Assembly (NCBI RefSeq): GCF_004010195.1
Contig: NC_057757.1
Coordinates: 834,041-896,904, forward strand
Length of the DNA stretch: 62,864 nt
DNA from: Chiloscyllium plagiosum
Taxonomy: Eukaryota
Direction of reading: 5' to 3'
The notes under the pieces are model-generated. The model made no database searches. It was not told where the DNA came from and saw only the letters and a program-made list of their open reading frames with translations. Position numbers and translations under genes: made by a program. Below, one piece after another: positions 8,904-50,100 of the stretch (positions are counted from its first letter, which is position 1; every line of letters starts with the position of its first letter).

Positions 8904-9033
8904 GTGTATTTGTGCAGCTTCCATCGGAGTTGCCTGCTCCTCTCATCCTCCTGCTCCTGCAGTTTCCTTGCCAGCTCGAGATTGAGGCGAACCCCCTGGC
9001 TCTTCAGTTTGTTGGCGGAGAGATGCTGCTGAA
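8904..9033 (-). CDS. CCDC50-like coding exon 3 (IQQHLSANKLKSQGVRLNLELARKLQEQEDERSRQLRWKLHKYT)
   Basis: attacag acceptor and AC|gtgagg donor; resembles CCDC50 [29 protein letters not shown]. Confidence 0.85.
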
Positions 9034-9753
9034 CTGTAATAGGATTCAGAGAGGGAATTAAATCACTGAGACAGACAGATAGACAGACACACACCCAGAT
9101 TCACCCCCAGACCCAGACGCACGCTCACCCCCAGACCCAGACATAGCCAGCCACAAACACTGATCCAGGCACAGACACGTACACCCCACTACAGATGTAA
9201 TCATACAGACACTCATTCTTCGATACAGGCACAGCTCCAACCATTCCCCAACACAGACCCCAACTCCATATACATTCACAGTCCCGCACTCTCTCAGCCC
9301 CCAAAACAAGCATGAATACCAGCTCAAATAAGCACAAACACACACACCTCAATACAAGCATTAATCACACCCTCAAATATCCACATAGAGGCATCAGTAC
9401 ACACCCACATTCCATCACACGCAAACACATGAGTGTTCGTGCACACACACACACACAATACAGGCCTAAATACGACAGTGGCATCAACAATGATGCATGC
9501 TGATACAGGCGTGTCACTCCTGTACATTGATACAGGCATAAACAGGTGGAAATGCAAACATGCACTGACCTCATCACAGGCATAACTGATACAGGCACAG
9601 ATTGCCTGCATAGGCACAGGCATGAAGAAGAGATAAAAATGATCTGATACAGGCACTAATATACAGCAAGACAACACAGGCAGGCACAGAGACAGGTAGA
9701 CATACACACAGGCACATCTCAGTATGCACATGTGCACACAACCCCATACTCAC

Positions 9754-9816
9754 TCTCTTGCTCCTGTAGCACATGGGCCACTGTTTGATCTTCCAGAACC
9801 TGGAATTTTTGGCACA
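9754..9816 (-). CDS. CCDC50-like coding exon 2 (VCQKFQVLEDQTVAHVLQEQE)
   Basis: ttgcag acceptor and A|gtgagt donor; 63 nt; closely matches the CCDC50 N-terminal motif [21 protein letters not shown]. Confidence 0.88.
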
Positions 9817-10472
9817 CTGCAAGTGGAAAAGACAGGAATGGAGTAATGCTGAAATTCAGGCTCAGCTTCTTGAAGTCAGCACAAAGGTACATCGAGCACA
9901 GGCCTGAGAAGGGTGACCCCTCTGATCACTGCTCATTCAAACAATCACTCCCCATACCCACAGTCCTGACAGGGAAGCACTGAGCAACACAACAGCTCAA
10001 CTACAGTCAGCAACAGGTAAGAGAAATCTTCAGTTTCTCAACGCTGTTTTCAAATATCCCATGAGCTCGCTCCATATCTCTGTCACCTCCTCCAGCCCCT
10101 ACATCCCCCTCCCTCCCTATCTCTGTCACCTCCTCCAGCCCCTACACCCCTCCCTACCTCTGTAACCCCTCCAATTCCAGCTTCTTGACCATTCCCCGAT
10201 TCCCATCGCTCCACCATTGCGGGCCGTGCTTTCAGCTGTCTGGGCCCCAGGCTCTGGAACTCTCTCTCTCTTTAGATACACTCCTTAAAAATCAACCTCT
10301 TGTCTTACTGTCTCTAAATGGGAAGCTTTACTATGTTGACAGCTACATAAATACATGTCATTGATAACGAGTAAAAACGTTTAAATGAAATAGTTGGTTT
10401 GTATTGAATTTCATCCACCGTTCCCAAGATTCCCTGCAAACCTTTGTAGTCAATTTAAAGTTTAATTCTTAC

Positions 10473-12570: not shown

Positions 12571-13224
12571 TTAAAATTAAAGTCCCATTTATTCTTGAAA
12601 ATGTACAATAAATCTGGATAAATTAACATGAAACCGGTCTTTTGAGTTTATTTTCTGCACAGACGTAACCTGAACAGCAGCATTTCAAAGTTTAATACGT
12701 TTGTAAAGCTACTATAGGACAGTAAAAGTTTACATTTAAATTAATTTTTGCTTTAAAATAAATTCCCCCTCCCCAGCAACTTCCCCAGGTCTTCCCTGTA
12801 ATTCCAGTCCCCCCCCACCCCATCGCTGTAACCATTCCTGTGAAACTTGTCCACGCTCTTTCCAATAACTTCACACCGAGTGTGACAGAGAGGATCAGCA
12901 TTACAAACAGAAAAGAGAGATTTCCTGGATTATGGTCTTTATTCTACATCAACATTCATATTAGTCACAGCTGACACCAGGATGAAAAGACCCACTCTCA
13001 ACCCAGCTAGAGACCGCAGGCCGAGAGGTACAGCTGTCAATCCGATGCAGCGTCCGTCCTCCACAACAACTTGCATTTATGTAGCACTTTAATACCAGAA
13101 AGCATACCCAGGCTCCCTCACAGGACCGAAAATCAGTCAACCACTTGATGTGCACACAGAAAATCAGATATAACCGGGCATACGATGCAATTCCCCAATG
13201 CAGAAACATCATATTGGTTGACAG

Positions 13225-13800
13225 TGCAGTGCTGAGTGAATGCCGCACTGTTGGAGGGTCAGTACTGAGGGAGTGGGCACTGTCGGAGGGTCAGTGCTGA
13301 GGGAGTGGGCACTGTCAGGGGGTCAGCACTGAGGGAGTGCCTCTCTGTCGGAGGATCGGTGCTGAGGGAGTGCCGAACTATCAGAGGATCAGTGCTGAGG
13401 GAGCGGGCACTGTTGGAGGGTGAGTGTTGAGAGAGTGCTGCACTGTTGGAGGGTCAGCGCTGTGGGAGTGCCGCACTGTCAGAGGGTCAGCACTGAGGGA
13501 GTGGGCACTGTCGGAGGGTCAGTGCTGAAGGAGTGCCGCAATGTCGGAAGGTCAATACTGAGGGAGTGCCACACTGTTGGAGGGTCAGTGCTGAGGGAGC
13601 GCTGCACTGTCGGAGGGTCAGCGCTGAGGCAGCGGGCACTGTTGGAGGGTCAGTGCTGAAGGAGCGCCGCACTGTCGGAGGGTCAGCGCTGAGGGAGCAC
13701 CGCACTGTCAGAGGGTCAGCGCTGAGGGAGCGGGCACTGTTGGAGGGTCAGTGCTGAGGCAGCGGGCACTGTTGTAGGGTCAGTGCTGAGGGAGCCCCAC
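13225..13800. repeat. ~31-bp satellite array
   Basis: Tandem GCACTGTCGGAGGGTCAGTGCTGAGGGAG units. Confidence 0.92.
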
Positions 13801-14361
13801 AGTTTGCTGGCTAGGTATTTTCAGATGTTCTGGGTGAGGCAGTGGAGATGGAGGGGTGAGGAAAGGGGAATTTTGCTCAATACCTTGAGCTAACAATAAT
13901 CCCTCAACCAACATCACTGGAAAACCATCCCCTCCCTATTTATCACATCACTGGTTTCGAGAGCTTGCTATTTGAAAATTGGTCATAATGGTTCTGAGAA
14001 TCGAGCAGTAAGTATGAAATCACTGCTGAGTTCCTGAGAAGCTACAGAAATGCAAGTTATTCCTTCCTGGTTCCATGCTGTGTATATATCTGCGGTTTTG
14101 TCATGAGGTTTTCTGTGTGCAGGAGAAAATGAATTCCACTTGAATGACACTCACAGCAAGACAACAGAGAATCTAACATTAGCTCTGCTATTGACAGTAT
14201 CTCAAATTCACCCACAGAACCCCCACACCACGCCCTTCCAAATTAAATCATTAATTACAAGCGAAAAAGCAGGATATTTGTTTCAAAAGTGCCGAGCATT
14301 TGCGATGCTGAGAATTCTTCCAAACGGAGGGTTAATCCCCTGCTGGCTATTGATTGGCATT

Positions 14362-14430
14362 TTATTCCCAATCAGTCAAGCGTCCGTTCAGTTCATCACC
14401 ATCCAAATTCCACTCTGCCTCTGGATCATC
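14362..14430 (-). CDS. Osteocrin-like precursor, candidate terminal coding exon (DDPEAEWNLDGDELNGRLTDWE*)
   Basis: Branch-point-like cactaac, pyrimidine tract and cag acceptor; phase 0 matches the donor at 17654; AATAAA overlaps the stop. Confidence 0.55.
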   Translation of the reverse strand, partial: DDPEAEWNLDGDELNGRLTDWE

Positions 14431-14509
14431 CTGATTAGGAGAGAGGTGCCACGTTAGTGAAGGTTCCCTAAACGAAAAGGCTTAGGTACAGAGCAACAGG
14501 AGTTGGCCT

Positions 14510-17295
14510 ATTGGTGGAGCCCAGAACAAGAGGGCATAGGTTTATGGTGAGAGGGGAAAGATTTAGAACGGCACTAAGGGGTTACTTTTTCACACAGAAG
14601 GTGATGCGTGTATGGAATGAGCTGCCAGAGGAAGTGGTGGAGGCTGGTACAATTACAGCATTTAAAAGGCATCTGGATGGGTATGTGAATTTGGAGGGAT
14701 ATGGGCCGGGTGCTGGCAAAGTTTAATTCAGATAAATACGAGATGCTGCATTTTGGGAAAGCAAATCTTAGCAGGATTTATACACTTAATGGTAAGGTCC
14801 TAGGGAGTGTTGCTGAACAAAGACCTTGCAGCGCAGGTTCATAAATTCCATGAAAGTAGAGTTGCAAGTAGATAGGATAGTGAAGATGGCATTTGGTATG
14901 CTTTCCTTTATTGGTCAGAGTATTGAGTACAGGAGTTGGAAGGTCATGTTNNNNNNNNNNNNNNNNNNNNNNNNNNNNNNNNNNNNNNNNNNNNNNNNNN
15001 NNNNNNNNNNNNNNNNNNNNNNNNNNGTCGGGGAGTCCAGAACTAGAGGGCATAGGTTTAGGGTGAGAGGGGAAAGATATAAAAGAGACCAAAGGGGCAA
15101 CGTTTTCATGCAGAGGGTGGTACGTGTATGGAATGAGCTGCCAGAGGAAGTGGTGGAGGCTGGTACAATTGCAACATTTAAGAGGCATTTGGATGGGTAT
15201 ATGAATAGGAAGGGTTTGGAGGGATATGGGCCGGGTGCTGGCAGGTGGGAGTAGATTGGGTTGGGATATCTGGTCGGCATGGACGGGTTGGACCGAAGGG
15301 TCTGGTTCCATGCTGTACATCTCTATGACTCTTTGACTCTCCTTTGCCATTCAATAGTATCATGGCTGAAGAGTTATCTAACACCACAGGCCTGCCTTAG
15401 GCCATATCCTTAATGCCATTCCTTAATAAAAATCTGTCTCAGACTGAAATTTACCTATTGAATTTGCATCCACTGCCGTTTGAGGAAGAGAATTTGAAAC
15501 CTTTGTGTGTGGAAGTGCTTCCTAACATCTCTCCTGAATGGTCTGACCTCTATTCTCAGACTATTCTCCCCATGTCTAGAATTCCCAACCAATGGAAATA
15601 GTTTATCTTTATCACCCCTGTATTTGCCTGCTAATCTAACTGATTTGAATGTGAACATAGGAGGTATAGCTAGTAAGTTTGCAGATGACACCAACATTGG
15701 AGGTGTAGTGCACAGCAAAGAAGATTATCTCAGAGTAAAACGCAATCTTGATCAGATGGGCCAATGGACTGAGGAGCGGCAGATGGAGTTTAATTTAGAT
15801 AAATGCAAGGTGCTGCATTTTGGAAAGGCAAATCAAAGCCTTATACACTTATACACTTAATGATAATAGTGAGAGTGTTGCTGAACAAAGAGACCTTGGA
15901 GTGCAGGTTCATAGTTCCTTGAAAGTGGAGTCACAGGTAGTTGGGATAGTGAAGAAGGCGTTTGGTATGCTTTCCTTTATTGGTCAGTGCATTGATTATA
16001 GGAGTTGGGAGGTCATGTTGCGGTTGTACAGGACATTAGTTAGGCCACTGTTGGAATATTGCATGCAATTCCGATCTCCCTCCTATCGGAAGGGTGTTGT
16101 GAAACTTGAAAGGGTTCAGAAAAGATTTACAAGGATGTTGCCAGGGTTGGAGGATTTGAGCTATAGGGAGAGGCAGAACAGGCTGGGGCTGTTTTCCCTG
16201 GAGCGTTGGAGGCTGAGGGGTGATCTTGTAGAGGTTTATAAAATCATGAGGGGCATGGATAGGGTAAATAGGCAAAGTCTTTTCCCTGGGGTGGGGAAGC
16301 CCAGAACTTGAGGGCATAGGTTTGGGGTGAGAGGGGAGGGATATAGAGGGGATTGAAGGGACAACGTTTTCACACAGAGGGTGGTGCGTGTATGGAATGA
16401 GCTGCCAGAGGAAGTGGTGGAGGCTGGTACAATTACAGCATTTAAAAGGCATCTGGATGGGTATGAGAATTTGGAGGATTTGGAGGGATATGGGCCGGGT
16501 GCTGGCAAAGTTTAATTCAGATAAATGCGAGGTGCTGCATTTTGGGAAAGCAAATCTTAGCAGGATTTATACACTTAATGGTAAGGTCCTAGGGAGTGTT
16601 GCTGAACAAAGAGACCTTGGAGGGAAGGTTCATAGCTCCTTGGAAGTGGAGTCGCAGATGGATAGGATAGTGAAGAAGGCGTTTGGTATGCTTTCCTTTA
16701 TTGGTCAGAGTATTGAGTACAGGAGTTGGGAGGTCATGTTGTGGCTGTACAGGACATTGGTTAGGCCACTGTTGGAATATTGTGTGCAATTCTGGTCTCC
16801 TTCCTATCAGAAAGATGTTGTGAAACTTGAAAGGGTTCAGAAAAGATTTACAAGGATGTTACCAGGGTTGGAGGATTTGAGCTACAGGGATAGGCTGAAC
16901 AGGCTGGGGCTGTTTTCCCTGGAGCGTCGGAGGCTGAGGGGTGACCTTATAGAGGTTTACAAAATGATGAGGGGCATGGCTAAGGTAAATGGCAAAGTCT
17001 TTTCCCTGGGACCGGGGAGTCCAGAACTAGAGGGCATAGGTTTAGGGTGAGAGGGGAAAGATATAAAAGAGACCTAAGGGGTAACACTTTCACACAATGG
17101 GTGGTACGTGTATGGAATGAGCTGCCAGATGAAGTGGTGGAGGCTGGTACAATTGCAACATTTAAGAAGCATTTGGATGTGTATATGAATAGGAAGGGTT
17201 TGGAGGGATGTGGGCCAGATGCTGCAAATGGGAGTAGATTAATTTCGGATATCTGGTCAGCATGGAAGAGTTGGACTGAAGGGTTTGTGTCCTTC
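14510..17295 (+). mobile_element. Cluster of 3'-end CR1 LINE fragments, partly head-to-tail
   Basis: Repeated KCEVLHFG...QRDLGV...LVRPLLEYC...RRLRGDLIEVYKIM...RVVRVWNELP ORF2 C-termini and 3' UTRs. Confidence 0.92.
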
Positions 17296-17653
17296 CTGAC
17301 TCTGGGTAGTTTCTTTCGGAGCGATTTTTTGATTCAATCTCCCCTTTGTATTGTTTGCTCTGGCCCTCCCACCCTCACTGACGCCCCCCCCCCCACGCCA
17401 CCTCACACCCACCCACCCCTGAGAGTGTTCGGGAGTAGGGGTATGTAGCCTTCGCATCAGCTGATGGGTGGGATCACTCTGTGAGCCCCCTCACCCATCG
17501 AGGTAGCAAAACCATCTCGAGAAATGTGGGACACTCGAAAAGACTGTGCAATCCCATCTCAGTATATTGGCACAGGACTGGTCCTCAGGAGCTGAGTAAC
17601 CGGGAAAGGGGGTACAAAGAGGGGTCGGGGAAAGGGGGGGGGCATTAACTCAC

Positions 17654-17720
17654 CAACCAGACCCTCCTGTGGAGTAAGGATGGGCCTCCAATGTGATCCA
17701 GCGGGGTCAATATTCTCCGC
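17654..17720 (-). CDS. Osteocrin-like precursor coding exon 3 (RRILTPLDHIGGPSLLHRRVWL)
   Basis: tttctacag acceptor, phase 2 entry, TTG|gtgagt donor (read-through would add VS* ending 17645); resembles OSTN RRFGIPMDRIG. Confidence 0.8.
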
Positions 17721-17989
17721 CTGTAGAAACACATAAAGGATGAACAAAATGTTCAGCGTCATCCAGCCCTCTGATTCCAATTGATATAATTGTTCCCCAG
17801 CCCCAGCACCCAATTCCAGACCTGCCCCTTGAATTTCCAACTGTGCATCCAAGCCAGCACCAAGACTACCTCCCTCTATCATCGCCCCTTCGGCCCCTCT
17901 GGATTCTACTGTCATCAGCCAGTATCCCACCCTCCGTAAACTGTCTCATCCCAGGGACTGGACAGACTGGAGTTGTTTCCCCTGGACCA

Positions 17990-18500
17990 AAGTGAGGACT
18001 GCAGATGCTGGAGATCAGAGTCGAGAGTGCGGTGCTGGAAAAGCACAGCAGGTCAGGCAGCATCCGAGGAGCAGGAGAGTCGACGTTTTGGGCAAAAGTC
18101 CTTCATCGGGAATGAGGCTGGGAGCCTCGGGAGTGGAGAGATAAATGGGAGGGGAGTGGGGCTGGGGAGAAGGTAGCTGTGAGTGCAATAGGTGGATGGG
18201 GGGTGGGGTTAAAGGTGATAGGTCAGAGAGGAGGATAGGTGGGAAGGGAGATTGACAGGTAGGACAGGTCATGAGGGCAGTGCCGAGTTGGAGGGCTGGA
18301 TCTGGGATAAGGTGGGAAGAGGGGAAATGAGGACCAGTGGTGAAATCCACATTGATGCCCTGGAGTTGGAGGGTCCCAAGGCAGAAGTTGAGGCATTCTT
18401 CCTCCAAGCGCTGGGTTGTGAGGGAGTGGCGGTGGAGGAGGCCCAGGACCTGCATGTCCTTGGTAGAGTGGGAAGGGAAGCTGAAGTGTTCGGCCACGGG
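17990..18500 (-). mobile_element. Penelope-like element 3' fragment (GIY-YIG endonuclease C-terminus and terminal repeat)
   Basis: VAEHFSFPSHS...LEEECLNFCLGTLQLQGINVDF resembles the GIY-YIG C-terminus of Penelope ORFs; degenerate hammerhead-like motif in the tail. Confidence 0.7.
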
Positions 18501-18629
18501 GCAGTGGGGATAGTTGGTTGCTCCCCTGGAGCAGAGGAGACTGAGAGGGACAGTATAGATTCACAAGGTGCATCGATAGGGCAGACAGATAGGAATTTTC
18601 CCCCCTTTTTGCTGGGATCAATGACCATC

Positions 18630-19440
18630 TTGAAATTAGAGTCCCAGGTAGACAGGGTGATGCAGAAGGCGTTTGGTATGCTTGACTTTATTGGTGATTG
18701 CATTGGGTACAGGGGCTGGGAGGTCATGTTGAGGCTGTACAGGACATTGGTTAGACCACTGTTGGAATATTGTGTTCAGTTCTGGTTTCTGTGCTACAGA
18801 AAAGATGTTGTGAAACCTGAAAGGGTTCAGAAAAGATTCACAAGGATATTGCCAGGGTTGGAGGATCTGAGCTACAGAGAGAGGCTGAACAGGCTGGGGC
18901 TGTTTTCCCTGGAGCGTAGGGGGCTGAGGGGTGACCTTATAGAAGTTTACAAAATTATGAGGGGCATGGATAGGGTAAATAGACAAGGTTGAAAATGTGT
19001 TGCTGGAAAAGCGCAGCAGGTCAGGCAGCATCCAGGGAACAGGAGAATCGACGTTTCGGGGCATAAGCCCTTCCTGAAGCGCTTTTCCAGCAACAAATTT
19101 TCAGCTCTGATCTCCAGCATCTGCAGACCTCACTTTCTCCCTAAGTAGACAAGGTCTCTTCTCTGGGGTGGGGGAGTCCAGAACTAGAGGGCATAGCTTT
19201 AGGGTGAGAGGGGAAAGATATGAAAGGGACCTAAGGGGCGAATTTTTCACACAGAGGGTGGTGTGTATGGAATGAGCTGCCAGAGGAAGTGGTGGAGGTT
19301 GGTCAAATGACAACATTTAAAAGGCATCAGGATGGGTATATGAATAGGAAGGGTTTGGAGGGAGATGGACCAAGTGCTGGTAAATGGGACTAGATTATTT
19401 TATAATATCCGGTCGGCATGGACGAGTTGGACCGAAGGGT
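18630..19440 (+). mobile_element. CR1 3' fragment interrupted by a short Penelope-derived insert (about 18990-19140)
   Basis: CR1 ORF2 C-terminal peptide on both sides; AGACAAGGT is repeated at the two flanks of the insert. Confidence 0.8.
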
Positions 19441-20016
19441 CTACCTCTGTGTGTATACCTCTATGACTCTATGAACAGGGGGCATAGATTGAAGATACGA
19501 AGCAGAGGGTTTAGCGGGGAGGTGAGGGGGTGCGGGGAATCTGGAATTCTGTAGGAGTGGGAGAGGCAGAAACACTCATCACACCACGGAAGGGTTTGGA
19601 TGTGTCCTTGTGATGCCCAGTGCTGTGAATGGGGACTGTAATAGTGACCAGTACAGGGCTCAGTGGGCCAAAGGGTGTCTTCTGCGCTGTTGACCTCTAT
19701 CACTTTTCTTTATCACTGCAAGGTATGGCAGTCCCGAATAAATCCAACAGTGTAACACCTTTCCCTGGAGACTGAGGAGCTCACTCTCACGGGGAGTGGC
19801 TGGATTGTGGTGGGAGTGGGGGTGGGGTGATGACATGGGCGATGCTCAAGTGGGACAGCACAGATGGGCCAAATGGCCTGTTTCTGTGCTGGAGATTCTC
19901 AGTGGGGGGTTGGGATGTTATACTGAGGAACCCCGCCCCCCCTCCCGCCATGGGCAGGTTCTCCTGGCAGTCTGACAGAGCAGACGAGAGGTATGGGGAA
20001 AGAGAGAGGGCCTCAC

Positions 20017-20219
20017 CGAGGAGCTGGGCGGTCACCGTGGATCAGCCGTTTCTCCGAGAAAATCCGATCCAGGGGCCTTCCGAAGTTGGGAAGCAGGGAT
20101 GCTCTGGCCCCTCGCTGTTCACCCACTGACTCTGAGAAACCGGCTGTGTCCAGGTAATCATCATCGTCAGCAAATCGCACACTGGACCTGGAGTCACCTA
20201 CATCCAAAGGAACTGGGGC
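20017..20219 (-). CDS. Osteocrin-like precursor coding exon 2 (APVPLDVG...RGARASLLPNFGRPLDRIFSEKRLIHGDRPAP)
   Basis: gcag acceptor and CG|gtgagg donor; 203 nt, phase 0 to 2; FGRPLDRI resembles OSTN FGSPLDRL and the natriuretic peptide core FG..xDRI. Confidence 0.85.
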
Positions 20220-20299
20220 CTGCTCGTAGAATGACACCATCATGAGCAGCAGAGAAAACAGCTCGAGAGCAAAACACATCTCTCTCCTTCACCTTCTCT

Positions 20300-21070
20300 A
20301 TCTCACTCTCCCTCTCCCCATCCCTCGCTCCATTGATCTCACTCTCTCTCCCCATCCCTCTCTCCATTTATCTCACCCCCTCTCCCCATCCCTCGCTCCA
20401 TTGATCTCACTCTCTCTCCCCATCCCTCTCTCCATTTATCTCACCCCCTCTCCCCATCCCTCGCTCCATTGATCTCACTCTCTCTCCCCATCCCTCTCTC
20501 CATTTATCTCACCCCCTCTCCCCATCCCTCGCTCCATTGATCTCACTCTCTCTCCCCATCCCTCTCTCCATTTATCTCACCCCCTCTCCCCATCCCTCGC
20601 TCCATTGATCTCACTCTCTCTCCCCATCCCTCTCTCCATTTATCTCACCCCCTCTCCCCATCCCTCGCTCCATTGATCTCACTCTCTCTCCCCATCCCTC
20701 TCTCCATTTATCTCACCCCCTCTCCCCATCCCTCGCTCCATTGATCTCACTCTCTCTCCCCATCCCTCTCTCCATTTATCTCACCCCCTCTCCCCATCCC
20801 TCGCTCCATTGATCTCACTCTCTCTCCCCATCCCTCTCTCCATTTATCTCACCCCCTCTCCCCATCCCTCGCTCCATTGATCTCACTCTCTCTCCCCATC
20901 CCTCTCTCCATTTATCTCACCCCCTCTCCCCATCCCTCGCTCCATTGATCTCACTCTCTCTCCCCATCCCTCTCTCCATTTATCTCACCCCCTCTCCCCA
21001 TCCCTCGCTCCATTGATCTCACTCTCTCTCCCCATCCCTCTCTCCATTTATCTCACCCCCTCTCCCCATC
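20300..21070. repeat. Pyrimidine-rich minisatellite, 68-bp unit (dimer of ~34 bp), in the intron between osteocrin-like coding exons 1 and 2
   Basis: About 11 near-perfect tandem copies. Confidence 0.95.
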
Positions 21071-21233: not shown

Positions 21234-21326
21234 CTGTGCCTGGGCTGTGTTCAGTACGAACCCTAGGCTTGGCTGCAGGAGCAGGAGCAGGAGCAGATTC
21301 TGAGCGATGGCCTGACTCAGGAACAT
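21234..21326 (-). CDS. Osteocrin-like precursor coding exon 1, signal peptide (MFLSQAIAQNLLLLLLLQPSLGFVLNTAQAQ)
   Basis: gtacag|ATG acceptor and CAG|gtacgt donor; 93 nt; Leu7 hydrophobic core followed by a PSLG cleavage-like region. Confidence 0.85.
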
Positions 21327-23462: not shown

Positions 23463-23605
23463 CTTTAGCAGCTCCGCGAACACTGGGGTTAGTTTGCAAA
23501 TGCTACTCTCCTCCGTTGCAGTTGAATTGCGAACCTTCTGCTGTTAAGTCCCTTTTTACTGAGGGGTTTATAAAGGTTGACCTGGGCGGGGTATTTATAA
23601 AAAAG
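23463..23605 (-). promoter_or_regulatory. Candidate TATA promoter and non-coding exon 1 of the osteocrin-like gene
   Basis: Minus-strand TATAAA at 23567-23572, GC box and A/T-rich element just upstream; an ATG-free ~80-nt stretch ends in AAG|gtgaga at 23463; splicing gives AAG-ATG (A at -3). Confidence 0.55.
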
Positions 23606-33550: not shown

Positions 33551-33750
33551 TCAGGGAACTTTTTTCCGGCTTGAGTTTGACTTCTTCCCATCTCGGCATC
33601 TCTCGCAGAAAAAGACGTCAGGGACTTTAGACTTGCGGATTTTAGCACAGGACAGGTGGATCCAGGTGTTGCACTGGTTACACTCAATCATCGGCCTGCC
33701 CGCAAACGGCTTCTGGCAGTAACAGGTCACCAGGCTCCAAGAGTCATCAT
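33551..33750 (-). CDS. PHF23: PHD finger protein 23, exon 5 (PHD finger, stop)
   Basis: [51 protein letters not shown] is a C4HC3 PHD finger typical of PHF23/PHF13; gttgtag acceptor. Confidence 0.93.
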
Positions 33751-35614
33751 CTACAACACCGGCAGAGCCAGAGGGGGGAAAGGAGCGAGGGGGGCAGCGC
33801 AGGAACGAGGTGGGGGGGAGCAAGAGCAGTGAGAGTGAGGGGGAAGGGAGCGAGGGAGGCGACAGANNNNNNNNNNNNNNNNNNNNNNNNNNNNNNNNNN
33901 NNNNNNNNNNNNNNNNNNNNNNNNNNNNNNNNNNNNNNNNNNNNNNNNNNNNNNNNNNNNNNNNNNNNNNNNNNNNNNNNNNNNNNNNNNNNNNNNNNNN
34001 NNNNNNNNNNNNNNNNNNNNNNNNNNNNNNNNNNNNNNNNNNNNNNNNNNNNNNNNNNNNNNNNNNNNNNNNNNNNNNNNNNNNNNNNNNNNNNNNNNNN
34101 NNNNNNNNNNNNNNNNNNNNNNNNNNNNNNNNNNNNNNNNNNNNNNNNNNNNNNNNNNNNNNNNNNNNNNNNNNNNNNNNNNNNNNNNNNNNNNNNNNNN
34201 NNNNNNNNNNNNNNNNNNNNNNNNNNNNNNNNNNNNNNNNNNNNNNNNNNNNNNNNNNNNNNNNNNNNNNNNNNNNNNNNNNNNNNNNNNNNNNNNNNNN
34301 NNNNNNNNNNNNNNNNNNNNNNNNNNNNNNNNNNNNNNNNNNNNNNNNNNNNNNNNNNNNNNNNNNNNNNNNNNNNNNNNNNNNNNNNNNNNNNNNNNNN
34401 NNNNNNNNNNNNNNNNNNNNNNNNNNNNNNNNNNNNNNNNNNNNNNNNNNNNNNNNNNNNNNNNNNNNNNNNNNNNNNNNNNNNNNNNNNNAGAGGGAAG
34501 GAGGGAATGAATTTGAGTGACAGAGAGAGGAGGTAACAGTTAAATGAAGAACAATTCCTTTTCTACCCAAGTACCACCCCATCCCTCCCAACTCAAACAC
34601 AAACTAGAGGATGTCGCTGTTCACCTCCACCTGAAATTTCCTATGACAGTAAACATTGCCTGCGTCCCAGCAGGGTGCAGCTGTGGCCTATAACACAAGA
34701 TACACAGCATGAAAACAGGCCATTCTGCCCCAGCCTAGTCCACCTGAGCCTCCTATTACCTTTCCTCATCTAAACACACTGCCGGAACCCTCGATACCTT
34801 TCGATCTCAATCGCTTGTCTATTATCAATGCTGTTGTGGATGAGTCATGCAGAGGCTCTGGGGACAGAGGTGAGGTGAACCAGATGGATTCACACTACAA
34901 TCAATTACAGTATTATGGTCACTGTTAATGCAGATAGCTCCATATTCCAGAACATAAGCAGTAAATTCAAGCTGGAACCAGCTTCCCTGTGCCTCTGGGT
35001 TACCAGTGCAGCAGCATTAGCACACTGCCACTGCCTCCCCACTCTGACGAAAGAACAAAGCTGCATTTATTTAATGTCTCACACGGTAGGCATGTCCCAG
35101 AACACTCTCCAGCCAAAAGACCCATTTTTCAGACGAGGCCATCCATTTTGCAAACCAGCCCAGTTCCACTAGCAACAAGGAGAAGTGATGTGTTTTTAGC
35201 CGTGGAATAAATACCGTGCAGGAAAGCTTGCAAGTACAGCCGAGTCCATAGACATCCGGCCTCAAAGTTTCATCTCATCCAAATTCAATACCTCAGCACA
35301 GCATTCAATATCAGCCTACATTAACACCCATCCCTGTGTGGCACCTTCCAGTTCGGTACTGGGTCAAATGGACCCAACAAATTCAAACTGACAGTTGTGT
35401 TAAAGAGCTGGACACGTTATGAGCCTACATTAGAGTGGTGCTGGAAAAGCACAGCTTCATTCCCGAAGAAGGGCTTTTGCCCAAAACGTTGATCTTCCTG
35501 CTCCTCGGATGCTGCCTCACCTGCTGCGCTTTTCCAGCACCAGTCTAATGTAGACTCTGATTTCCAGCATCTGCAGTCCTCACTTTTGCCTGCACACATT
35601 CTGACCAAACTAAC

Positions 35615-36191
35615 CTGATTCCACCATGATGTCTTCGTCCATGATGCGTGTCTCGCCTTCACTGGAGCTGCTGCCCCCGTCTCGGCTGTTTCCCACACTG
35701 AGCGAGTCTTTGATTTCCATTTGATAACTCTCACTATAAACACCCTCCGGATCTGGCCTCAGAGGCTCGGGGAGAAAGTTCCCTTTCACCAGCTCTTCGT
35801 CCGAGTCGGTCTCACTCAGCGAGGCCTTGACTTTCTTCTCCGCTCTCTCTTTCTTCAGCTTGCGTTTCTTCCTCCTCTTGATCCGGGAGAAGGTGGACTT
35901 CTCGCCATCCAGGGGCCTCAGCTGCTCCGCCTCAGAGGGCCAGTGCTTGCTCCTCTTCTCCTTCTTTTCCTCCGGGGCTGGGTACAAGGAATCCTTGAGC
36001 TTCAGCCTGTCCAGGAGCACCCCGTCCGGTCTCAGGGGATGGAACCCATTCCTCCTGGAGCTGCTCGCCTTCTTCACAAAATTCTGGATGGTGTCAAAGT
36101 CAACAGACTGGGTGGAGTCCCAGCTGTCACTGTCCAAAACACTCTCTGTCGGCACTGGGGAATTTGAACTTGATGGCGTCCAGTCACACTC
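35615..36191 (-). CDS. PHF23: PHF23 exon 4 (ECDW...DSDSWDS...IQNFVKKA...RIKRRKKRKLKK...SSSEGETRIMDEDIMVES)
   Basis: tctcacag acceptor and G|gttagt donor; 577 nt; PHF23-type motifs (FVKKA, LKDSL, MDEDIMVES). Confidence 0.92.
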
Positions 36192-36384
36192 CTGTGAGAA
36201 TTTGAGGGAGAGAGGAGTCACATTGAGTTTTTTCCCCCTCAGTATTGGCCCTGCACTTCAATGTTAATTAACCTCCGTTCCCTTAGAACCCAAAAGTCCC
36301 AACCTTCCCAGCCTCAAAGACTGAGCTGTATAGAACTCCATGTTTTCCACCCACACTCAGTCAGTGTTGCCTTCCTTTTTAGAA

Positions 36385-47790: not shown

Positions 47791-49129
47791 CCCCAATCCC
47801 ACAAAATTCTTCTGTGCCTTGATAGCTTACTGTACTTTCTGGAAGAATGGGAGTGTAATTGGCAAAGGAGAGAACAGTAACATGCCACAGATAGCAGAGA
47901 CCCTGACCATGCCAGGACTTTGGATCTTCTGAAGACCCTTGCAAGAGTCCAGGTTTCTTACAATGTCTTTACAAAGATCGTATTGACACTGCTTTTATCT
48001 CCTTGAATACTGAAGATGGAGGGGTTTAATGACTTGGTGAAGTGGCAGATGAATCCAGAACAAGAGGGTTTGCAGTAAATGTAGAGCCAGAGCCATTCAG
48101 AGGTAATGTCTGGAAACACTCCCTCATACAATGGGAGGTTGGACATCTGCAACTCCCTCTCGCAAGCAGCTCTGACTGTTGGAGATTAATGAAATTGCTC
48201 CAATGTGAAATTCATAGATTTCTATTATTAATAGGCATTATGAGTTTGGGAACCAAGATATGTGGAAAGAGGGAGGTGATGACCTAGTGGTATTATTACT
48301 AGACTGTTAATCCAGAGACCCAGGTAATGTTCTGGGGATTGGATTTGAATCCCACAATGGTAGATGGTTGAATTTGAATTCAATGAAAATCTGGAATGAA
48401 CTGCCTAATGATGATCATGAATCTATTGTCAATTTTCAAGACAAACCGATGTGATTCACTAACGTCCTTCAGGGAAGGAGACTGCCATCCTTATCTGGTC
48501 TGGACTACATGGTTTGCCTGACCCACAACTATGTGGTTGACTCTTAACTGCCTTCAGGGATGGCCTAGCCAGTGATGCCCTCACCCTGTGAATGAATGAA
48601 AATCAAACATGATTTCATCAAAGAGTGGAACACGATCAATGTGCAGAATGACCTCCTCCTGCTTCTAAATAATGGAAGATCTAAGTGTGTAAACAAACAT
48701 AGCAATTAATAGACAAATATAAAAGAAGCAATGTCTTGCATTTATATTGTGCCTTTTACAGTCAACAAATGAACCAAAGTGCTTTACTGGTCACAGATAT
48801 AATAGAGGTAGCACCACGAATAAAAATGTTTGAATTCATCTCTTCAGTAGGCACATAATGCAATGTTAATAGAGTTGTTGACTTTCCCAGAGATCAATAT
48901 CTGTCAATGAGTTGACAATAGATCCAGCCATGAGGTGGGGAAAATCCACAGAGATGGAGAGACTTGAGAACCAAAAATCCAAGGTCACCTTCCCCTCACA
49001 AGTGTTTCTCTATGTTATGTACCAAATTACTGAGATACTGGATATCAAAACATTATTATCTGAAAGAAACCAATCTAATTTTTATTTGAAATATTTTGAA
49101 TTCAAAACCCTACCATTTCTGAATTCAAC

Positions 49130-50100
49130 ACCTCCCCCTCACCCCCCCGCCCCCCCCCCCCCCCCCCCCCGAGTGTACCCCCCCCCACCCCCCGGGACTC
49201 CCTCTGGGGGTCGGTCTCTCTCCCCCCTCCCCCTCCCCGGGGTCTCCCTGCCCCCCGGGGCACGGGCTCGGTGATGTTGATGAAGACTCTCTCACCCTCC
49301 GCCATCTTCAGCATCGCCGCCGCCGCCGAGAACCGACTCCTCCTCCTCACGGACACGCGCACCGACCCTCTCCCCCGCGCGCGCCCCCGCTCGCCGGCCG
49401 CACTCGATGCCACGAGGACGCGCTTTCCACCGCCCGCAACAAACACACTCTCTGCCTTTCCCGGCGCGCGCTCCTCCCTCACCGTCACGTGTTTCCCCCC
49501 TTTTCCCGGGAGCGCGCGCTCGCCCCACCACCAACCCCCCTCCTCCGCGGGGGCGTGCCCGCCTCTCGCGCCCTTTTTCCCCTCGGGACGTTTTTTTTTC
49601 GCACACTCCGCCCTTCCAGTGACGCAAGACACCAGCACGGAGCAACGCAGGAGTGGGGGGGGGGCTTCCTCCTCCTCATTCAAAGCAAAAAGCGGCTTCT
49701 TCATCTCATCTCCCTGCCGTCACGTTGAATACCCTTTATAATAATAATGTTCACTTTCTAATTGTATAAACGCATGAAGAAAAGTCCTCGAAGCTTTCGA
49801 TTTGTTTCAACCTAAACCTTGATATTCCTGCCCCCCCCCCCACTATTCCTCTGCTTTGGATTACTCCAGCTTCAAAGGCCAAGGTCGTTTCGTCAGAGCG
49901 TACTTTTTTTCAGCGCGCAGCGACGTGGGGCGTGCTTACGTCATCACACGGGGGCGGGGAAGCGCGCCTATGTCATGCACAATGCGCCTACGCATACGCA
50001 GTAATGCGTCATCGCGTCAGGTTGGACGTACAGTAGTAGGTTGGTAGAAGAAATCGCCGCCATGTTGGTAATGGAGCTGGACCAAGTTGGCACATCAGGT
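49130..50100. promoter_or_regulatory. CpG-island promoter of PHF23, probably bidirectional
   Basis: CpG-rich; CRE/ATF-like TTACGTCA and TGCGTCA, GC box, and YY1-like CCGCCATGTT at about 50057-50066. Confidence 0.7.
49296..49314 (-). CDS. PHF23: PHF23 exon 1 coding part (MLKMAE)
   Basis: ATG preceded by a GCG repeat in the CpG island; G|gtgaga donor; resembles human MLEAMAE. Confidence 0.8.

Follow-up and report, generated by a model that had tools for sequence, protein, structure and literature searches.

A 62,864-nucleotide stretch of contig NC_057757.1 from Chiloscyllium plagiosum (hereafter the window) holds a gene that looks like an undescribed paralogue of osteocrin, a hormone of bone and muscle. 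What is new is the gene itself: an unnamed shark relative of osteocrin that pairs an intact natriuretic-like motif with a decayed one and ends in an acidic tail. It lies on the minus strand between 21326 and 14362, where four coding exons with canonical AG/GT ends form an open frame of 143 codons (Table 1). Both motifs are present on the minus strand where a sequence-only reading of this DNA had placed them. The span given there (17654..20110), however, omits the signal-peptide exon (21326-21234) and the acidic tail, and the precursor does not end soon after motif 2, since exon 14430-14362 supplies most of a 25-residue tail with a net charge of -8. As for what the product does, one complete chain of events is proposed here that stands an even chance of being right: the predicted secreted product would be cut by convertases at four sites, the 17-residue peptide holding motif 1 (peptide 1) would occupy NPR3 and thereby spare C-type natriuretic peptide (CNP), and the 15-residue peptide holding motif 2 (peptide 2), a decayed copy, would probably not bind NPR3.

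Homologues were sought with phmmer over 1.84 billion representative sequences and with word-index searches, which yielded three shark proteins. These are chiPu_0029489 from C. punctatum (88 residues, partial, with a motif-1 exon 95% identical to that of C. plagiosum), GCB80586.1 from Scyliorhinus torazame (99 residues, ending at the exon-2 donor), and XP_078063474.1 from Mustelus asterias (141 residues, full length, 'uncharacterized' in RefSeq), with which the C. plagiosum product shares 69 of 143 residues. A fourth phmmer match, a repetitive protein of 1062 residues (E 8e-5), was dropped as spurious, and no canonical osteocrin was among the homologues from these searches. The sole family match is to Pfam Musclin (PF11037), which aligns residues 69-117 of the Mustelus protein with profile positions 80-131 (E 0.0046, 17.3 bits); the partial Scyliorhinus protein has no Musclin match. 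Sequence searches of the PDB returned nothing relevant, the look-alikes in the ESM Atlas are neuropeptide precursors (scores 0.84-0.88; leads only, with no homology shown), and AlphaFold2 on the 4-row alignment was uninformative (mean pLDDT 54, pTM 0.14). Publications on a shark osteocrin or an osteocrin paralogue were absent among the matches listed (partial listings, subscription journals excluded), and the main text of PeptideMiner mentions neither osteocrin nor shark.

Contigs from sequencing runs show, indirectly, that coding exons 2-4 are spliced together. Four runs (X1, X2, X4, and X21) were aligned on 13800-20298, where most shared words come from intronic repeats, and two of them, X1 and X2, from two organisms, carry the exons as single contigs. 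The X1 contig (record 8) measures 314 nt at a depth of 4.2, with 165 nt aligned on 20016-20180, and the X2 contig (record 16) measures 333 nt at a depth of 3.1, with its positions 16-222 aligned on 20016-20222. The support for splicing is arithmetic (bin depth divided by contig depth), the exon joints being absent among the joints listed, where intronic repeats dominate. In the exon 3 and exon 4 bins, X1 has 13+53+82 = 148 bases against a remainder of 149, and X2 has 14+53+44 = 111 against a remainder of 111; both contigs thus account to within 1 base for exons 2+3+4. Among the runs listed for this DNA, none is on record as RNA; that X1 and X2 are RNA runs is a guess, although splicing within a contig implies cDNA. 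The X2 match breaks off at 20222 and leaves 15 letters unplaced, the outcome to be expected were an upstream exon with a terminal CAG joined to the acceptor at 20220/20219. In X21 (about 2% read) and X4, the exon-3 bins and the mostly-exon-2 bin are uncovered, which does not address expression elsewhere. Low-depth contig coverage in X1 (and X4) at 13800-14233, downstream of the stop exon, may reflect a longer 3' untranslated region, and more AATAAA signals are found at 12943, 12652, and 12593.

The hydrophobic leader of coding exon 1, a putative signal peptide, is homologous across three species by sequence comparison: compared to the two carcharhiniform orthologues at their N-termini, the exon has scores of 73 and 68, values reached by 0 of 3000 shuffles in each case. 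The transcript presumably uses this exon. A start at ATG 20279, as in chiPu_0029489, was rejected, since the leader that it would give behaves like shuffles against the same orthologues (1210 and 1576 of 3000) and contig X2 departs from the genome at 20222; this in-frame ATG most likely reflects read-through of the intron. Translation of the C. punctatum model in the public record starts at this intronic ATG, where a T-rich acceptor tract (20220-20279) yields a false hydrophobic leader. Two other ends of the gene were discarded as well. A stop reached by read-through directly after exon 3 conflicts with both contigs, in each of which no more than about 53 bases fall in bin 17489-17705, and in place of a last exon near 14113 the contig remainders fall in bin 14234-14450.

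Both motifs of the product are bracketed by basic residues, as had been claimed: RGAR and KR for motif 1, RRR and RR for motif 2. All are present, but the RRR is formed by splicing. A 2.3-kb phase-2 intron splits the first Arg codon of this site 3, and read-through meets a stop at once, so that site 3 exists only in the spliced message. Four basic sites or more occur in 1249 of 10000 shuffles of the mature region (12.5%), and in one species alone their number is not beyond chance. Their conservation is. As the sites were named before any orthologue was examined, with conservation among sharks proposed as the check, the comparison is a fair test: sites 1 and 2 are identical in all three orthologous proteins, from two shark orders, and sites 3 and 4 are kept in Mustelus, the one orthologue of the three long enough to cover them, the Scyliorhinus and C. 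punctatum models stopping before peptide 2. All nine site residues are still basic in Mustelus, whereas of the four further basic residues that lie outside the peptides one is (Fisher p=0.014); in the reciprocal count, one of five such Mustelus residues is kept in C. plagiosum.

Peptide 1 matches its counterparts at 17/17 residues in C. punctatum, 15/17 in Mustelus, and 12/17 in Scyliorhinus, with Phe, Pro, and Leu-Asp-Arg-Ile common to all four sharks. The core that the sequence-only reading wrote as FG..DRI is indeed kept in motif 1, although its true spacing is F-G-x-x-x-D-R-I and its Gly is not invariant. The window has a single copy of the osteocrin-type pattern FG.P[LM]DR[IL], and 200 triplet shuffles taken together also give one. 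In Scyliorhinus (residues 76-80), replacement of the Gly by Arg puts an RK pair within peptide 1, and the Pro after this pair should protect it from cutting.

Peptide 2 is kept in Mustelus at 9 of 15 residues, compared to 7 of 34 in the spacer and tail together (p=0.009), which indicates that something still constrains it, although it is less conserved than peptide 1 (p=0.076). Phe-Gly and Arg are missing from both sharks that cover it. The loss of FG claimed earlier is thus borne out, whereas the R>H change is not a conserved feature: the Arg position is His in C. plagiosum but Gln in Mustelus, and what the two sharks have in common is therefore the loss of Arg, not the gain of His. The tail shares 6 of 25 residues with that of Mustelus, and its homology taken alone is weak (168 of 5000 shuffles). 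The 143-residue product contains no Cys, so that both peptides lack one, and they also lack a Gly at the C-terminus; both would therefore be linear, as had been stated, and unamidated. The comparison with Mustelus, in which sites and peptides are conserved while spacer and tail drift, resembles the classic pattern of a prohormone.

The proposed chain would begin with removal of the signal peptide after residue 22. A cut of the furin or PACE4 type at RGAR would quite probably expose motif 1, like the basic site before motif 1 in mouse musclin; PACE4 reportedly cuts R-X-X-R, RR, and KR, and furin cuts R-X-X-R less well (PMC9296861). The paired basic sites KR, R(R/K)R, and RR are about as likely to be cut as not; cutting there, followed by carboxypeptidase trimming, would free peptide 1, the spacer, peptide 2, and the acidic tail. 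Once free, peptide 1 would rather probably act as an NPR3 decoy that, having no ring, does not activate the guanylyl-cyclase receptors; osteocrin itself has no ring and for that reason binds NPR3 without binding the cyclase receptors (bioRxiv 10.1101/697094). Occupied NPR3 would then raise local CNP, as osteocrin does by the same occupancy (bioRxiv 10.1101/697094, PMC9219612). Peptide 2 would be under constraint rather than mere debris, with a target other than NPR3 in its usual mode. In the mouse, the motif-1-only peptide 80-112 was infused as active musclin, with an Asp89Gly/Arg90Gly mutant as control (PMC10095193). This use, with its DR-to-GG control, speaks for a ligand role of peptide 1 and a poor one of peptide 2, and the earlier suggestion of one active ligand plus a degenerate copy fits these data.

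Several observations weigh against this chain. The Pfam Musclin score is below the curated cut-off of 21 bits, and the exon-2 and exon-3 products of C. plagiosum, taken singly, have no Pfam match. The exons appeared in only two of the four runs, at depths of 3-4. The core Gly of peptide 1 is Arg in Scyliorhinus torazame, and sites 3 and 4 and peptide 2 are supported by a single orthologue. None of the four flanking sites is an optimal furin site (R-X-K/R-R), and the residues after sites 2, 3, and 4 in C. plagiosum are Leu, Ile, and Val, aliphatic P1' residues that convertases disfavour. The only optimal furin site of the family, located directly after the signal peptide and followed by Gln (RAKR and RGKR in Mustelus and Scyliorhinus), has been lost in C. 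plagiosum (21234-21260), which means that sites can be lost; in carcharhiniform sharks, cleavage at this site could yield an acidic pro-peptide that begins with pyroglutamate. Lastly, the active mouse motif-1 peptide has 33 residues and a basic tail, compared to a neutral 17-mer here, and the two mouse motifs, LDRL and MDRI, are reported to bind NPR-C cooperatively (PMC3733923, citing earlier work), which favours an uncut tandem.

Such a tandem is the core of the strongest alternative, a tentative one that is rather less probable than not, in which processing would be partial as in osteocrin. Only RGAR, and perhaps the last RR, would be cut, and a tandem of about 46-73 residues would circulate, with motif 1 binding NPR3 and the weakened motif 2 adding avidity or stability; the inner basic residues would serve for receptor or glycosaminoglycan contact, or for slow cutting. 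Besides the cooperativity of the mouse motifs, it is favoured by the report of musclin in full-length and once-cut forms (PMC12803823), by the aliphatic residues after sites 2-4, and by the spacer length and the 25-residue distance from Asp to Asp between the motifs, both equal in the two sharks, while a half-site role would explain why peptide 2 is conserved above the spacer. However, the exactly kept basic pairs bracket a spacer whose own basic residues drift, the absence of Phe and Arg from motif 2 weakens its cooperative role, and the acidic tail behind a kept RR resembles a removable flanking peptide.

A second alternative, compatible with the four-site chain and unlikely as it stands, is that both peptides are freed and peptide 2 acts as an independent hormone through another receptor, such as a G protein-coupled receptor (GPCR), peptide 1 perhaps also signalling outside the natriuretic system. 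Nine of the 15 residues of peptide 2 are kept across two shark orders despite the loss of NPR3 residues; human osteocrin 81-102 acts at GPR1 and 115-133 at GPR68 with roughly micromolar potency (PMC6838683), and osteocrin also binds PTPRU (PMC9578707). On the other hand, these human GPCR pairings are weak in potency, the comparison has a single orthologue, the position of the lost Arg varies (His/Gln), and peptide 2 has no amidation signal and trails peptide 1 in conservation. A broader scenario, equally doubtful, is that a second osteocrin dating from the vertebrate genome duplications was retained in sharks and became a multi-peptide prohormone, with one product tuning CNP clearance and peptide 2 (perhaps also the acidic tail) a new hormone whose receptor lies outside the natriuretic system.

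It is more improbable still that the gene is simply the diverged osteocrin orthologue of the shark, with the known osteocrin anatomy, and not a second gene. The two-motif layout, Musclin as the sole Pfam match, and a CCDC50-family neighbour would agree with this, as would the fact that no canonical shark osteocrin, of which this would be the second copy, was retrieved in the homologue searches. Against it stand the 'uncharacterized' status of the Mustelus protein in RefSeq, a Pfam score under the cut-off that concerns the motif region only, and a C-terminal extension that mouse musclin does not have. In the surroundings, moreover, the CCDC50-family exons at best just reach the Pfam cut-off, the window shows no urotensin-related motif, and the other neighbour belongs to the PHF13/PHF23 family. 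Finally, that the motifs are chance fragments in non-coding DNA or in a pseudogene is extremely improbable and already largely refuted: exon coverage is missing in two of the four runs and four basic sites are common in shuffles, but there are an open frame of 143 codons, four canonical exons, spliced contigs in two organisms, and a full-length orthologue.

Table 1. Features of the osteocrin-like gene and its surroundings (window coordinates).
Feature	Position	Strand	Description
Coding exon 1	21234..21326	-	31 codons, phase 0; start codon immediately after acceptor AG; canonical AG/GT
Product of coding exon 1	21234..21326	-	Putative signal peptide, predicted cut after residue 22; outside the read-aligned stretch
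Coding exon 2	20017..20219	-	203 nt with a phase-2 donor; encodes acidic pro-region, site 1, peptide 1, site 2, and spacer
Basis for exon 2 boundaries	20016 / 20222	-	Both contigs end at 20016; contig X2 departs from the genome at 20222
Coding exon 3	17654..17720	-	67 nt; remainder of site 3, peptide 2, site 4; phase-0 donor
Basis for exon 3	17654..17720	-	Depth book-keeping: 66-67 covered bases in both contigs
Coding exon 4	14362..14430	-	Final 22 residues of the 25-residue acidic tail, stop codon; AATAAA overlaps stop
Basis for exon 4	bin 14234-14450	-	82 and 44 contig bases of the remainders fall here; the Mustelus protein also ends in an acidic tail, similar in length
Probable non-coding first exon	23463..23599	-	GTGAG donor at 23463/23462; suggested by sequence pattern, outside the read-aligned stretch
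TATA-like boxes	23599 and 23572	-	Sequence pattern only
Site 1	20103..20114	-	RGAR (minimal R-X-X-R); identical in 3/3 orthologues
Peptide 1	20052..20102	-	17 residues; intact ring-less natriuretic core FGRPLDRI
Site 2	20046..20051	-	KR; identical in 3/3 orthologues
Spacer	20019..20045	-	9 residues; length kept, sequence not (1/9 Mustelus, 2/9 Scyliorhinus)
Site 3	17714..20018	-	RRR, assembled across the splice junction; RKR in Mustelus
Peptide 2	17669..17713	-	15 residues; decayed motif, no Phe-Gly, Arg replaced
Site 4	17663..17668	-	RR; identical in Mustelus, the sole orthologue extending that far
68-bp tandem repeat	20299..21070	.	11.3 copies, 99% matches, near-perfect; intron between coding exons 1 and 2
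CCDC50-family gene, downstream	8919..9818	-	Two exons; Pfam CCDC50_N E 4.1e-06 (27.5 bits) and 2.7e-05 (24.8 bits), cut-off 27
PHF13/PHF23-family gene, upstream	33554..36257	-	PHD exon: PHF13 100.9 bits, PHF23 90.2 bits; other PHD fingers <=36 bits

In a Pfam scan of 139 of the 397 non-repeat open reading frames of the window plus the tail exon, only CCDC50_N and PHD matches were at or near the cut-off. The score of the PHD exon is somewhat nearer to PHF13 than to PHF23, and the ESM Atlas gave no match for the PHF exon. Exon 35613-36257 is presumed, by resemblance, to belong to the same PHF13/PHF23-family gene, whose middle exon is taken to be PHF23-like. No urotensin-related motif was found in the six frames of the window, which includes 2815 N. 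In humans, OSTN lies by UTS2B and CCDC50 on 3q28, and it is near CCDC50 in tetrapods, whereas PHF13 and PHF23 lie on the paralogous segments 1p36 and 17p13; the part of this synteny that was confirmed is that ccdc50 adjoins uts2b in Xenopus. Set against the human arrangement, neighbours of the PHF13/23 and CCDC50 families suggest that the gene may be a paralogue from whole-genome duplication. Elsewhere in the window, an open frame of 640 codons at 2027-108 (minus strand), with no Pfam match, may be a very large internal exon of the divergent CCDC50-family gene, a possible first exon of the PHF13/PHF23-family gene lies near 49105-49400 (minus strand), and a 33-bp satellite occupies 13227-13795, downstream of the osteocrin-like gene.

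Osteocrin is the endogenous blocker of natriuretic-peptide clearance, and the surveys consulted give a single osteocrin gene, as in a cichlid with one OSTN (PMC4992253). A shark relative that annotation has missed would mean one more regulator in a lineage in which, going by the titles of references, CNP is the heart hormone. CNP also controls the rectal gland in sharks. For osteocrin itself, the gene offers a natural experiment on whether the motifs act jointly in one tandem or separately as two peptides, and on whether a single linear motif of 17 residues is sufficient as an NPR3 ligand, a question that two short synthetic peptides make directly and cheaply testable.

Among known systems, the closest is osteocrin/musclin (OSTN; PF11037), with which the shark gene shares a precursor of similar size, a basic site before motif 1, two tandem ring-less motifs, a Pro before L/M-D-R, a polybasic site directly before motif 2, and a CCDC50-family neighbour. 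Compared to the printed human and mouse sequences, peptide 1 carries the first ring-less motif of OSTN (FG-x-P-L-D-R-L/I) and corresponds to it, while peptide 2, behind its polybasic site, corresponds to the second (PMC6838683, PMC3733923, PMC10095193, PMC10728487). The basic sites before motif 1 and between the motifs are likewise present and conserved. Their layout is not new as such: the osteocrin C-terminus is described as tandem natriuretic-like sequences with polybasic residues between them, 'presumably cleaved by peptidases' (PMC10253422), and single-motif human osteocrin peptides have been assayed on orphan GPCRs (PMC6838683), so that the idea of processing into two peptides, on which the sequence-only reading rested, had already been put forward for osteocrin. 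The differences are that site 1 is a minimal RGAR where osteocrin has KKKR, that a kept KR closes peptide 1 four residues past the core, that a variable 9-residue spacer lies between two sites, that RR and the acidic tail follow motif 2, and that the pro-region has no Pfam match. Because the second motif of OSTN (FG-x-P-M-D-R-I) is not intact in either shark covering it, Phe-Gly and Arg being absent, and because the score is below the family cut-off, the gene is not filed as OSTN.

With ANP, BNP, and CNP, the shark gene shares the Phe-Gly-x-x-x-Asp-Arg-Ile core, in peptide 1 only, and release from a prohormone at a basic site. Unlike them, it has two motifs rather than one and no Cys; without Cys there is no 17-residue ring, and the shark peptides are not expected to activate NPR-A or NPR-B. 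Multi-peptide prohormones as a general class differ from it in their amidation glycine, and no sequence homology to any such family emerged; what it has in common with them is the arrangement of kept basic pairs around kept peptides, with a drifting spacer and acidic flanks.

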